Of a stretch of 64,000 nucleotides of DNA, positions 1-61,030 are shown one piece after another. Origin of the DNA: Eledone cirrhosa (lineage: Eukaryota); NCBI GenBank assembly GCA_964016885.1, contig OZ024741.1, positions 55,552,001 to 55,616,000 of the forward strand, read 5' to 3'. Both the position numbers and the translations under genes were made by a program. Numbering within the stretch: the first letter of the stretch is position 1; every line of letters begins with the position of its first letter. Below the pieces are notes generated by a model that saw only the letters and a program-made list of their open reading frames with translations, was not told the DNA's origin and searched no databases.

Positions 1-1587
1 TTTTTCAAACTTATGGGTAAATATGCAAATGAATATGTAAATAATTGAAAAACAACCGTTAATTTAAACGACTATGGAGAGTTTAGTAAGAGAGAGAGAA
101 GAGAAGAAGGAAAAAATAGTAAGAGAGAGAGAGAAAAAGGAAAAAAGCAAAGATAAATGAAAAGCTCATATAACGTTAATTTGAGGGAAATATATTCGAA
201 CAGTTATCTATGTATATATGTAAGTATATATTTTAATAGTATGTGTATTTATATTAAAAGATAATTTACAATTATTAGTTGTTTATAATTTGTTTATAAT
301 ATGAGTTACGAGGGATGTTTTTGTTCCGTTTTAATAAATAAATAAATAAATAAATGGGTATATTATGTAAATAAATATGTATTTAAATATGTATTTAAAA
401 TTGAGAATGATTTAAAATTAAATTAACGGAGTTAAGTAATATTTATATGATTGAAAAGGAAAGATAAGGAAAGATAAACTCCGATTTTATTTATTCGTTA
501 GTGTGAGACTATTTAGTCAAAATAAGTATGGATGCTTAAGATACATTTAGCCAGAATCAGTTTGTGGTTACTATCTACATTTAAATAATAGCTTTAGGTG
601 TCATTGTACTTAATAAAGACTTAAGAATTAAGAAATTAAGAAAATTAAAAAATAAAAACTTTTTTCAAAATTTTTTAATTTTTTAATTTTTTAATTTTTT
701 AATTTTTTAATTTTTTAATTTTTTAATTTTTTAATTTTTTAATTTTTTAATTTTTTAATTTTTTAATTTTTTAATTTTTTAATTTTTTAATTTTTTTATT
801 TTCTTAATTTTCTAAATTAAAAAATTTTTAAATTAAAAAATTTTTTTTTTTATCTAAAAAAAAACTTTAAAAAATTTTTATTTTCTTAATTACTTAATTC
901 TTAAGTCTTTATTAAGTACAATGACACCCTCTAAAGCTATTATTTAAATGTAGATAATAACCACTAACTGATTCAGGCTAAATGTATCTTAAGCATCCAC
1001 ACTTATTTTGACTAAATAGTCTCACACTAACGAATAAATAAAATCGGAGTTTATCTTTCCTTATCTTTGCTTTTCAACCATATAAATATTATTACTTAAC
1101 TCTGTTAATTTAATTTTAAATCATTCTCAATTTAAAATACATATTTAAATACATATTTATAAATACATATTTATTTACATAATATACCCTATATTTATTT
1201 ATTTATCTACTTAAAACGGAACAAAAACATCCCTCGTAACTCATATTATAAACAAATTATAAACAACTAATAATTGTAAATTATCCTTTTAATATAAATA
1301 CATATACTATTAAAATATATACTTACATATATACATAGATAACTGTTCGAATATATTTCCCTCAAATTAACTTTATATGAGCTTTTCATTTATCTTTGCT
1401 TTTTTCCTTCTTCTCTCTCTCTTACTATTTTTTCCTTCTTCTCTTCTCTCTCTCTTACTATTTTTTCCTTCTACTCTCTCTTACTATTATATATTATATA
1501 TCTAAACTCTCCATAGTCGTTTAAATTAACGGTTGTTTTTCAATTATTTACATATTCATTTGCATATTCACCCATAAGTTTGAAAAA
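1..1587. repeat. Large inverted repeat (arms about 700 bp; left arm probably continues beyond the window) around a (TTTTTTAA)n centre
   Basis: Position 1 tttttcaaacttatgggt is the reverse complement of acccataagtttgaaaaa ending at 1587. The arms match with scattered substitutions and indels. The 8-mer tandem lies at about 669-800. Confidence 0.9.
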
Positions 1588-1675
1588 TCCATTATACATT
1601 TCCACTATCCAGGGAATATTCAACTGATACGGTATGATTTTCCTGGGTATGTCTCTACTTATAAAACAAACTTTG

Positions 1676-1739
1676 TATTTTATCTGAAGAAAGCGTACCA
1701 AAGTGCTTTTGGTGCCCTTGAAATATATATAATAAAATA
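1676..1739 (+). ncRNA. Minimal type I hammerhead ribozyme motif
   Basis: TATTTTAT-CTGAAGA-stem II (GTACCAAA/TTTGGTGC)-GAA-ATATATAT-A|ATAAAATA. Stem I has 8 bp and stem III is palindromic. Confidence 0.7.
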
Positions 1740-2370
1740 AATATGGTTTTATAAATATAGTTTCCATTTATTTAATAACATTGATATATATACATATATA
1801 GATAGATATATAGGTGTATATATATGATGGTGTATATGTTTGTACGTGGGCGACTGTGTGGGCGTCTGTGTGTGTGTGTGTGTGTGAGTGTGTGTGTCTG
1901 TGTGTGTGTGCGAGAGAGAGAGTGAGTGTGTGTGTGTTTTCGTGAACTCTTATGGACACGCCAACCTAAATTCACTGAAGGATTATTCACTAATTCCCTC
2001 TCGTGGATTTTTACTCTCCGAAATGTGATTCACTTGACTATTCTTCACACACACCCACACCCCACACCCACCCCACCCACACACACAATGTTAATTGTAT
2101 CAATGTCCGCTGTAATCACCATTGGTCGTTTATCAATCGCCATGTCATACCGTATACACATGTGACCACAGTGAAAGATATCAAGTGAATAATTCACCAA
2201 TCTACATAGAAAAATAACTTTCTATAACATTCGATGTATATATGTGTGTGTGTATGTGTGCATGTATGTGTATATATGCATGTGTATATATGTGTGCGTG
2301 TATATGTGACACTTTATATGTGTATGGGAATATACATATATATATATATATATATATATATATATATATA

Positions 2371-3070
2371 CTAGCTGAATGACCCGGCGTTGCCCGGGTT
2401 ACTGCTATTCTTATTCAGATTAGTAAACAATAAATATGAAGATATTTTTTTTCTCAGAAATATTTTTATTTCAAAATATCTATATTTTATTTTTTTTTAA
2501 TTTAAAAATTGAATTTAGCAATGAAAATCTTTAAATCTTGAAGCACCTCAGGGTAAACAATATTCATTGTGTAATTTTTTGTTGGTGTCTAAATGAATAA
2601 ATTGTTGCTGCTTGCAGCTCGTGAGCAACCAACATAGAGTTGACTGTGGGAGAAACATGTAGTAGAGAGATCAAGTCCAGCTACCTTGAGGGATTGACCC
2701 TGAGATTTGTTAATTGAAATAACAAGACTTAGTTTGACTGGAAACTGAAGCCTCTTAAATTCAAATGAAACATAGACATACATTCATACAAACACACACA
2801 GAGCTTTACCGACAAACAGACACATATACACTCTCACAAACTTAAAAAAACACATATACAAAATGTGACGTTTTTGTTGTCGTCGTGTTATAAAATGTCG
2901 TTTACCTATAGTTGACTATAGAAAGATTATTTTAGATAAAATGTTATATTGTTTTAATCCAAATGAAAATAAAAATTACATGTTGTTAATACTAAAAATT
3001 TAGTTGATTTAGTTGAGCTATTTAAGAATGCATAAGGAGACAGACAGACAGAGAGACAAATAATTTTATA
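2371..3070 (-). mobile_element. Non-autonomous Helitron with PIF1 helicase C-terminal remnant
   Basis: Minus-strand 3' end is hairpin CCCGG..CCGGG followed by CTAG at 2371. ORF 2589-2783 has QFPVKL..SINKSQGQSL..HSQLYVGCSR (PIF1 motifs V/VI). A 5'-end-like TATATAAAA..TGTCTGTCT lies near 3070. Confidence 0.8.
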
Positions 3071-3333
3071 TATATATATATATATATATATATATATATA
3101 TATATATATATATATATATACGATATTAACAAATGGAAACTATATATCAGTTATAAAAATATTTACTTGTTGTATCCCAACAATTTAAATAGAACTTTTG
3201 CATATATATATATATATATATATATATATATAAAATTCTTTGTCTCTCTCTCTGTCTGTCTCCTTATACATTCTTAAATATATATATAGGAAAAGAGTCA
3301 GGACCCCGACAGCTGTTATATAGATATATTATA

Positions 3334-3520
3334 TCATCATCATCATCATCATCATCATCGTCATTTTACGTCCGCTTTTACATGCTTGCAAGGGTGGAAC
3401 GGGAACTGATTCTGGCTTGATTTCTACAGCTGGATGCCCTTCCTAACACCAACCTCATTTACAGTGAGTGCTAGGTACTTTTTTGCCGTGGCACCTCCTC
3501 GACCACTTTGCAGTGGAATG
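3334..3520 (-). mobile_element. 3' end of RTE-type LINE family with (GAT)n tail
   Basis: (CAT)n is followed by a conserved block with ctggatgcccttcctaacaccaacc. The same block occurs at 33617-33965 and 47053-47340, the latter adjoining RTE RT C-terminal coding sequence. Confidence 0.6.
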
Positions 3521-59082: not shown

Positions 59083-59831
59083 TCCTAGGGGATTCTGTCT
59101 ATTTTAAGGGGTTTGATTATCTTGAATCAAGTTTGTAAGAGCTGCCAGTTCGTTTTCATTTTCGTTTGATCGGCGTCTCCTAAAGCTACTCTCCGCCTTC
59201 CTGAAAGATATTTTTGTGTTTGCGGCCGTCTGTTTGTGAGGTTGTGTTTTAAGGCTTCTATTCGTTGGTAACGGACATTCGAGGTGAGACAGACCGCTTC
59301 GTCGTCGACTCCTTTTTTTGAAAGATGGCTTTCAATGAGTCAACGCTGACTCTGCCGTTCGCTCATTTGTTTGTTCGTTGTGTTTTTGGTCTAGGTGACC
59401 CAGTGAGCCCCTTTTTCCCAACGCAATCTGTCGTATTGGTGGTGTCCACCGAGATTGTGTTTAAAGGGCTGTATTCATTGTAGCTACGATCGTTGGAAAT
59501 GGGTCACCGCCGACCCTCCCGTTCGTTCATTGATTTGTTGGTTGGTTGGGGCGGCCAAGCGAGCCCCTTTTTCCCAAAAGATGGCTTCTGTGTGTTTGTA
59601 TGTATATATATATATACATATATATATATATATATATATATATATATATATATACATGCAAACACACAGTGAGAGTAAACACAGACACATTCGTATATTT
59701 ATCTATCTATTGCTATCTACACCCACACATACACGCACGCACACACACAGACACACACACACACACACACACACACATATATATATATATATATATATAT
59801 ATATATATATATATATATATATATATATATA

Positions 59832-60202
59832 ACCAGGGTGTGTAACGCGAAGTTACTGTAGGTTCAGCCAGGTGAGCACTCGAGGTTTAGGTTAACGTCA
59901 GTGGCGAGGTGTAGAGCTAAACAGAGTGTAATATAATGATACAAGGACAAATGGTTGCTCCTTCATTACGTTTATTGGTTGGTGACGCGTGTTTCGCTAC
60001 TGATCAGCTCAAAGTTCTATCTGTATACCACCAATCGTAGTAGTAATGTCATTACTATTACAGAGGTCTGGCGAGCTTTTGATTCCAGAGTCGCGCCAGA
60101 TCGATACAGATCGAACCTTGAGTTGATCAATACCAAAACGCGCGTCACCAATCAATAAACGTAATGAAGGCTTAACAAATCGTCCTTGTATTATTATTAT
60201 TC
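59832..60202. mobile_element. Diverged head-to-head element with degenerate HHRs in (TA)n
   Basis: Plus arm reads GGT-CTGGCGAG..AAAACGCGCGTC|ACC..AATAAA. Minus arm reads GCGAAACACGCGTCACC..AATAAA. Confidence 0.65.
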
Positions 60203-60578
60203 TTATATATATATATATAATTATATATATATATATATATATATATATATATATATATATATATATATATATATATATATATATATATATAGTAATAATA
60301 GTAATAATAATAAATTTGAAGACTAAAATCCAAAGAGGGACAAAAGGATAAATATATATCAAATATATAAGAACCCTACTTTCAGAAGATCCCGTTAAGG
60401 GTGAAAGCAGCGATTCTTTGCTTTAAACTTTAATCTGTTATTTTAATAAATAAATATATATATATATATATATATATATATATATATATATATATATATA
60501 TATATATAGAGAGAGAGAGAGAGAGAGAGAGAGAGAGAGAGAGAGAGAGAGAAGTTATATATAGTTAGTTCACCATAC

Positions 60579-60616
60579 CGAGGACAATTGTTTCACCTTA
60601 GCGGATCTTCAGCTCG
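60579..60616 (-). ncRNA. Minimal type I hammerhead in palindromic element 60553-60750
   Basis: CGAG-CTGAAGA-TCCGCTAAGGT-GAA-ACAATTGT-C|CTCG. Confidence 0.75.
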
Positions 60617-60833
60617 TACTACAGTACAGTACGAGCTGAAACAATTGTTCTCGGTATTGTGAACTAACTATTGTGTTATTACTTCTAGCAAACTCGTCCC
60701 ATGGGCTGAGTGTTCTACCACTACGGATATTTCCTTCCAGTGTTCTACCTCTCTCTCTTTCTCTCTCTCTCTCTCTCTCTCTCTCTGTATATATATATAT
60801 ATATATATATATATATATATATATATATATATA

Positions 60834-61030
60834 CCGAAGGTGGTGTGGTAAGGAACCAGATGGACCATAACGTACCAGAGTACTCAATACTTAGGGTAGT
60901 AGAGTGGGTAATAGGAAAAATGTTGGCCCCGACGGCAGAGCTCAAGCCGTTTCGACGGCTATTTCTGGACACAGTCTAGAAATAGCCGTCGAAACGGCTT
61001 GAGCTCTTCCGTCGGTGTCAAACTTTTTCC
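60834..61030. mobile_element. Family G palindromic element in (TA)n
   Basis: Centre ctggac-aca-gtctag, with arms as at 8405. Confidence 0.8.

Follow-up and report, generated by a model that had tools for sequence, protein, structure and literature searches.

In Penelope-like elements (PLEs), the head-to-head arrangement is the most frequent one, and a tail is optional on one inverted pseudo-long terminal repeat (pseudo-LTR) (Arkhipova et al., 2013; PMC3846280). PLEs are also accompanied by an inverted copy, often have the tail at one end only and are biased toward (TA)n, while the origin of the tandem and inverted structures and of the tail was called undefined (Craig et al., 2021; PMC8557442). 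A lizard PLE protein cut and extended both target strands in vitro, with two internal starts that bound the tail (Frangieh et al., 2024; PMC11167929). For L1, twin priming and dual priming have been defined (Meyer et al., 2010; PMC2837659). These statements, here and below, follow the accessible parts of the cited papers. Here, we analyzed inverted insertions of a PLE, named family A, and of other families in a 64,000-nucleotide stretch of Eledone cirrhosa DNA (contig OZ024741.1, positions 55,552,001 to 55,616,000; "the window" hereafter) and elsewhere in the 3.0-Gb genome. All family names (A-H, 0, 4, 5 and 7) are labels of this analysis.

It is evident that the insertions share a head-to-head layout with fixed polarity, that two fixed 3' stops exist in every family, that a pair nearly always combines one of each, and that the 5' extents of the two arms are independent. 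One stop lies at an AT/TA motif (flush end) and the second further 3' (tailed end). We consider it likely, with a probability of roughly 0.6, that such tailed/flush pairs arise from a double-strand cut of (TA)n by the PLE, after which both ends prime on a single RNA, at the two sites between which the tail lies.

Family A encodes a reverse transcriptase (RT) followed by a C-terminal GIY-YIG endonuclease, found in adjacent minus-strand frames of the window (PF00078, E 5.7e-05, below the curated cut-off; PF01541, E 6.5e-05, above it) and within single open reading frames (ORFs) in relatives. The presence of both domains bears out the PLE origin proposed in an earlier note, which was made from the window sequence. 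In the window frames and the relatives, a CX4CxxC linker immediately precedes the GIY-YIG core; a CX2-5CxxC linker marks Neptune and Nematis PLEs (PMC8557442), so family A would fit an endonuclease-containing (EN+) PLE of the Neptune/Nematis type. Its closest named relative is an Octopus vulgaris protein (63%, one of ten matches), and no named PLE reference set was among these ten matches. All seven family A arms of the window have a minimal type I hammerhead, some 200 nt upstream of the flush end. Identity with Naiad or Chlamys was ruled out by the C-terminal endonuclease and the hammerhead. As in EN+ PLEs, the 3' tail is optional and an inverted 5'-truncated partner is present; same-strand copies 1.5-2.5 kb apart also occur. 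The 3' motif of family A has 24,983 exact occurrences. Hammerheads here are predicted ribozymes, identified by a custom type I descriptor, which matched 24 times in the window, while five shuffles gave 0-1 matches each. A stricter version failed to detect the family A motif, and an Rfam scan (E up to 1) gave no hammerhead among the matches listed (150 of 197), only sub-threshold hairpin families.

To compare the window with the rest of the genome, we used 69 stretches (1.37 Mb, "sampled DNA") taken at round coordinates on larger contigs, which were neither chosen by content nor random. The descriptor found 127 hammerheads there, versus 0 in one shuffle. Neighboring hammerheads of the same family within 3 kb were head-to-head in 18 cases, tail-to-tail in one (with TA between) and on the same strand in nine, whereas neighbors of different families were head-to-head in two, tail-to-tail in nine and on the same strand in 15. 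Arm polarity is thus non-random also outside the window. Similarly, family A motif pairs within 5 kb were 42 head-to-head versus 3 tail-to-tail in the first 45 Mb of C1, and family B pairs were 30 versus 1 in the first 133 Mb. For the 12 window families, the sampled DNA contained 69 head-to-head joins (51 without families C, D and F; related tails may count a few twice) and no tail-to-tail join without TA between. The earlier note had named an equal frequency in non-PLE repeats as a check on its proposal, and no comparable head-to-head excess was seen there: seven control repeats comprised two SINE-like (short interspersed element-like) ones with 17 versus 16 and 3 versus 3, and five others with 1 versus 0 together. 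The suggested TA targeting also held, since (TA)6 was found within 400 nt downstream of 109 of the 127 hammerheads, compared with 34% of random positions. A family-blind search detected 89 inverted repeats that are joined at the centre and flanked by TA; they occur in 38 of the 69 stretches, their arms cover 1.7% of bases, and 157 further inverted records fell outside these criteria. The density of about 65 pairs per Mb would correspond to roughly 200,000 pairs genome-wide, provided that the sampled DNA is representative, and it is about three times as high in the window.

Another regularity concerns the tail. Exact ends genome-wide were 10,332 tailed versus 10,971 flush for family A and 2,962 versus 3,104 for family B, and at this ratio of about 1:1 a free choice predicts 50% mixed pairs. 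On the contrary, one tailed and one flush end were combined in 37 of the 42 family A motif pairs (p 2e-7) and 29 of the 30 family B pairs (p 3e-8). The same was true for 18 of 18 pairs from ten families, with the tail on the left in nine and on the right in nine, and for six of six pairs in the window. Among sequenced family A pairs, 14 of which derive from tail-selected loci, 48 of the 50 typed at both ends were mixed (seven more had one end untyped), and the family-blind set contained 71 mixed and eight both-flush pairs out of 89. The two primers, supposed in the earlier note to be equivalent, thus differ in outcome: one begins at the tail end, its partner at the flush site. Internal priming, another part of that proposal, is supported by a tandem 310-nt element, whose RNA runs beyond both stops so that both are internal. 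Tails are 33 to about 145 nt, perhaps 437 nt, in length; nine tails folded no better than shuffles (z -1.35 to 0.41), and in families other than A the spacer could not be assigned to one arm. RCTC near the tail start and GAGY 8-60 nt further on form a short stem in eight of 17 families from the window and sampled loci versus 0.34 in shuffles, though this motif was picked after viewing the sequences, some families may be related, and family A lacks it. The predicted stem is a possible shared binding signal.

The arms of the 48 mixed family A pairs were compared at their 5' sides. The tailed arm extended further in 18 and the flush arm in 14, and they ended within 30 nt of each other in 16. In the 14 with the longer flush arm, each arm has sequence absent from its partner; in two of these, the tailed arm is tail-only. 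Because neither arm contains the other, they are not mutual copies and must have been templated separately, unless a two-tailed hairpin was clipped on one random side. This agrees with the earlier proposal that two separately templated arms are joined at their truncated 5' ends. Meanwhile, the 5' ends were within 10 nt of each other in 13 of 48 pairs (2.5 expected by permutation), and in nine of 24 (1.3 expected) when ORF- or tail-selected loci were left out. In 20 of 24 pairs, an arm resembled its partner more closely than it resembled other copies (p 0.014), and at two tandem loci both arms bear that locus's own monomer. The coupled 5' ends, within-pair similarity and locus-specific monomers point to one RNA template. 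Of 34 junctions tried, 28 were resolved, and 17 of these contain 1-20 extra bases, some perhaps reflecting alignment error; eight of the 11 without added bases show microhomology of at least 2 nt (15% expected). Frequent microhomology at the 5' junctions, as described before, therefore holds for eight of the 28, while extra bases are the commoner state. The 5' ends did not cluster at the hammerhead cut site of family A.

Within the window, the earlier note had listed 19 insertions and stated a window-wide rule that ribozyme-bearing elements sit in (TA)n as pairs with both 3' ends outward. Arms were detected by self-BLAST after simple-repeat masking, since an unmasked run was flooded by TA runs; at the smallest sites (8935 and 60291), the tail-plus-flush joins were taken directly from the sequence. 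The catalogue, in window positions, is as follows.

1-1783: family 0 head-to-head pair; left minus arm starts outside the window, on its upstream side, and terminates in a family B tail; the right plus arm is flush, with hammerhead 1684-1731 (plus).
3698-3886: family B pair; left arm tailed, centre near 3832.
5006-6766: family E pair; the left arm (5006-5155, minus) consists of the tail only, the right arm (plus) is long and flush and bears hammerhead 6650-6715.
8405-8609: family B pair; right arm tailed.
8644-8818: family B pair; left arm tailed.
8934-8986: family C micro-pair; tail end of about 42 nt (minus) and flush end of about 10 nt, polarity from the tail only.
9328-10635, plus: solo 5'-truncated family A PLE, an unpaired exception; GIY-YIG ORF end 9616-10224, hammerhead 10434-10468, flush end.
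10714-13302: tandem 310-nt retrozyme-like element; left minus arm flush with two hammerheads, right plus arm with six hammerheads and a 34-nt tail, join at about 11414.
22526-23236: family H pair; left arm with an extension of about 437 nt, whose end is briefly repeated at 23066-23140, right arm flush.
23325-25393, minus: long arm of a family A pair, with a flush end; it contains an RT fragment (frame 24759-25436), a frame with thumb, linker and GIY-YIG (23729-24829) and hammerhead 23494-23528.
25394-25885, plus: family A short arm, partner of the preceding one; tailed, hammerhead 25646-25680. Neither arm of this pair (23325-25885) is included in the other.
26128-26766: family 4 pair, absent from the earlier list; internal TA run in the arms, right arm tailed, hammerhead 26372-26402 (plus).
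26794-27371 (plus) and 27876-28453 (minus): family C tail-to-tail pair, a counter-example; tailed ends face each other across TA (578 nt, one mismatch).
27412-27829: family D pair; right arm tailed, left arm ending about 23 nt short of the usual family D flush site, hammerhead not found.
28946-29151: family 5 pair; hammerheads 28966-29004 (minus) and 29021-29059 (plus), right arm tailed.
36513-36830: family F pair; left arm tailed, hammerhead not found.
38346-38947: family A pseudo-LTR pair; hammerheads 38571-38605 (minus) and 38747-38781 (plus), left arm tailed.
57081-57616: family A pseudo-LTR pair; hammerheads 57234-57268 (minus) and 57375-57409 (plus), right arm tailed.
57695-57923: family C pair; left arm flush, right arm tailed, polarity from the tail only.
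59832-60203: family G pair; left arm tailed, degenerate long-stem hammerhead (plus) in the right arm.
60292-60453: family C pair; left arm tail-only, right arm flush, polarity from the tail only.
60553-60747: family 7 pair; hammerhead 60583-60612 (minus), right arm tailed, flanks mostly (GA)n/(TC)n with short TATA runs.
60834-61030: family B pair; left arm tailed.

An inverted layout beside TA repeats was found at all 19 listed sites, 8935 being a minimal pair. Where a hammerhead or ORF informs, the left arm is minus and the right arm plus (14 of 14 sites). Hammerheads are present in both arms at six of these (1-1790 by way of the upstream locus L051, 10713, 23324, 28950, 38346 and 57082) and in one arm at three (5005, 60553 and, as a degenerate long-stem variant, 59832). 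For the family B sites 3698, 8405, 8645 and 60834 and the family H site 22515, polarity comes from a single further locus per family that carries a GIY-YIG ORF (S039, and S271 with an interrupted frame). At 8935, 27411, 36512, 57695 and 60291, the assignment is circular, because families C, D and F have neither a hammerhead nor an ORF of their own in the loci examined, among the matches listed, and tail position is the sole guide. Thus, "ribozyme-bearing" could be confirmed at nine of the 19 sites; at the other ten (families B, C, D, F and H), no hammerhead was found. Site 60553 differs in its flanks, which are (GA)n/(TC)n with only short TATA runs. As a rule for the whole window, the layout describes a strong majority and is not absolute, in view of the solo copies at 9328-10635 and 63450-63717 and the tail-to-tail pair at 26794-28453. 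Taken together, the reported layout is real and genome-wide, and its proposed interpretation is supported in part.

There are other structures in the window. The TA run of the family C duplication (26794-28453) also contains the family D pair. A perfect 368-nt palindrome (5258-5625) within the family E insertion is distinct from the outer pair and unexplained. At 3019-3280, inverted arms of 27-48 nt lie outside two TA runs around a family 0 micro-pair (3121-3201); these outer arms had no other match among the loci compared. Unlisted hammerhead elements are at 20177, 30034 and 35728-36453, the last being a direct tandem found only by a wider descriptor. More minus-strand PLE-like frames occupy 15009-19709 (GIY-YIG matches at 15009-15743, weak, and 17107-17526), and Helitron-like minus-strand frames occupy 49863-52063 (PF14214, E 5e-42).

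How could one event place a tailed and a flush arm head to head? From the insertion anatomy, we propose that the PLE protein would cut both strands of a TA repeat and free two priming DNA ends. Each end would prime internally, usually by AT/TA pairing of 2-4 nt, on one RNA at two fixed sites, one on either side of the tail. Such a pair of sites matches the two starts seen in vitro for the lizard PLE (PMC11167929). The one-of-each rule would be explained in this way, as one RNA cannot supply the same start twice simultaneously. RT from the tail end would trail RT from the flush site, and it may either stall, leaving a tail-only arm, or displace the leading complementary DNA (cDNA), giving overlapping arms; if both reach the same RNA end or hairpin, the arms would be equal. 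The cDNA ends would then be joined via microhomology or a few added bases, and repair would complete the palindrome. Layout and arm coupling agree with twin priming as defined for L1, and we infer the origin from one molecule. Some observations are unfavorable to this proposal. About one in eight family A motif pairs (5 of 42) is tailed-tailed or flush-flush, and four of 24 pairs are less similar within the pair than to other copies, three of them with internal rearrangements. Solos are frequent, with 43 unpaired and 101 paired arms in a set that was in part selected, though two of 16 flush solos conceal a short inverted tail end. The within-pair similarity could stem from later gene conversion, and strand displacement on RNA is an assumption of the model. 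Moreover, the protein studied in vitro belongs to the Poseidon clade and initiates without homology to the cut DNA; its start sites are alike on both strands, and the accessible text does not address use of the two starts in one event (PMC11167929). The excess of near-perfect palindromes and equal arms is predicted equally by fold-back of a single strand. It is possible that several routes are mixed together.

In that fold-back route, which follows Arkhipova et al. (2013) and a remark on "EN-mediated resolution" by Craig et al. (2021), a single strand copies itself into a hairpin, and the endonuclease clips the tail off either arm at integration. Self-priming on an antisense template has been put forward for PLEs (PMC3846280), and it would give the head-to-head layout by construction as well as the 13 of 48 pairs with close 5' ends and the similarity of arms. 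However, the second arm should then be a subset of the first, which 14 of 48 family A pairs violate, and since the tail is on the 5'-longer arm in 18 pairs and on the 5'-shorter one in 14, clipping must strike exactly one arm at random. In addition, starts at both tail boundaries already exist in vitro (PMC11167929), and 17 of 28 junctions have extra bases instead of a clean fold-back seed. We therefore regard fold-back as unlikely. Dual priming, in which two RNAs, one per target strand, are held in an asymmetric complex with a fixed start for each subunit, appears slightly more doubtful still. It makes strand displacement unnecessary and accommodates mixed-family joins, such as family C minus against family A plus at L024 or the family B tail on the left arm at 1-1790. 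The one-of-each counts exclude a free choice of start, and coupled 5' ends with within-pair similarity are unexpected under two RNAs unless both came from one very active locus.

Processes at the DNA level seem quite improbable for the main class. A broken (TA)n end may fold back and duplicate its neighbor in inverted orientation, or preformed palindromes like miniature inverted-repeat transposable elements (MITEs) may spread. A TA-centred class does exist (the family C pair at 26794-28453; 13 records in 1.37 Mb, about half near-identical), and these tail-to-tail pairs are perhaps a second, rarer class of palindrome from fold-back at a broken TA end. Such fold-back would yield tail-to-tail pairs around a central TA. 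The main class, on the other hand, has no central TA, and non-PLE repeats show no excess. Its variable centres within a family and its fixed polarity refute rearrangement there, which stands for the minority class, unless the latter are read-through cDNAs. A palindromic MITE or DNA transposon was rejected as the identity of the elements, as centres vary among copies and the two ends are unequal; family B as a fixed mobile palindrome was dropped for its varying centres. Finally, we give almost no credence to fold-back chimeras of assembly or amplification. A few arms are 99-100% identical (5258-5625, 10714-13302), and public reads on 4845-6760 include no record bridging centre 5441 among those listed, which is uninformative for this locus. 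However, 76 of the 89 sampled pairs have arm identity below 99% (median 94%), and family-specific stops and the one-tail rule are not expected from any chimera process. Read joints 5150-6760 and 5155-6755 (opposite strand) were considered as proof of the family E pair and rejected, as all they show is that, in other copies of family E, the tail follows on from the body.

With regard to the other families, B represents the 3'-terminal part of a second PLE (a complete link once, in locus S039; parts in S311, S077, L168 and S305), and H is probably that of a third. The remaining families are short, most having a hammerhead and no ORF found. The 310-nt unit has eight hammerheads at 310-nt spacing in near-identical monomers without a 120-aa frame, and in this it resembles non-LTR retrozymes, which are non-coding tandem monomers with a type I hammerhead each. 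These results support the suggestion that non-coding passengers are served, and under twin priming they would likely require just a compatible 3' region. A non-coding family (L122, L124, L127, L228 and S071, also L071) has only the last 25 nt and the tail in common with family A and differs upstream; it is likely a direct passenger of family A. Joins between families were also seen in L238 and S105 (L105), where the family A ORF runs into a family F end and family 5 into family C. The family 0 left arm that terminates in a family B tail (window 1-1783; L051, 9733-9790) suggests a template switch or a chimeric RNA. In family B copies (sampled loci and L139-L168, the latter chosen for similarity to one such copy), both arms often end about 40-70 nt from the flush end; this zone may be a stall or fold-back point, and longer copies have a 7-bp inverted repeat close to it.

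The elements resemble Neptune/Nematis EN+ PLEs in RT with C-terminal GIY-YIG, the CX2-5CxxC linker, the pseudo-LTR hammerhead, 5' truncation, the inverted 5'-truncated copy, a tail often at one end, the prevalence of head-to-head arrangement and (TA)n or AT-rich targets (PMC8557442; PMC3846280). The new palindrome-generating retrotransposition system envisaged in the earlier note is thus not new, since the inequality of the 3' ends corresponds to the PLE tail already described, and the head-to-head layout was likewise published (PMC3846280). In contrast to published EN+ PLEs, several families here occur as pairs more often than in any other single form, with both arms often short; tails range from 33 to about 145 nt, perhaps 437 nt, against the published 30-40 nt, and adherence to the one-tail rule can be tallied across many families. 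While the layout is already known for PLEs, this near-obligate asymmetry is what is new. The published PLE model is self-priming, whereas our data favor twin priming. In keeping with what is proposed for the elements here, the protein of the Poseidon element PAc cuts and extends both strands, cleaves at AT-rich sites, has two internal starts bounding the tail and copies past the uncut hammerhead (Frangieh et al., 2024). It differs in clade, in that the accessible account does not connect its two starts with a single event or with inverted arms, and in the reported lack of homology where copying begins; the flush ends in this genome have AT/TA bases in common with the target. In L1 twin priming, both target strands prime one RNA and give inverted fragments with inner-junction microhomology; there, a variant route, the first start is at the poly(A) tail and inversion is accompanied by internal deletion (PMC2837659), unlike the fixed internal starts and usually overlapping arms here. 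Animal non-LTR retrozymes, thought to be PLE-derived, are non-coding tandem type I hammerheads like the 310-nt unit (Li, Clavereau and Pollet, 2026; bioRxiv 10.64898/2026.07.22.740005). That preprint argues from distribution and phylogeny, and a word search of its accessible text found no inverted pairs or tails; the passengers here, in contrast, carry the PLE insertion signature itself. No paper proposing PLE twin priming or tallying tails per pair was found in the literature covered, with most subscription papers, older PLE reviews and supplements outside its scope.

These insertions provide a large natural set in which competing models predict different counts, and the counts favor two fixed starts, each used once per event. 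The PLE insertion signature is moreover a structural sign that PLE proteins move non-coding hammerhead families. More tentatively, and with less than even confidence, PLEs may normally integrate by twin priming: on a single RNA, one complex would bind the tail region and start the two target strands on opposite sides of it, so that tail and inverted pseudo-LTR arise in one step. Many unrelated hammerhead families would borrow this route, about half of them via the shared stem at the tail start, and about 200,000 palindromes (about 1.7% of sampled bases) would have been written in this way, a possible major source of double-stranded RNA (dsRNA) for editing. Octopus has an exceptionally high share of dsRNA-forming loci and of hyper-editing (PMC5625713), and inverted pairs of this kind, judging from their sequence, may help explain it.

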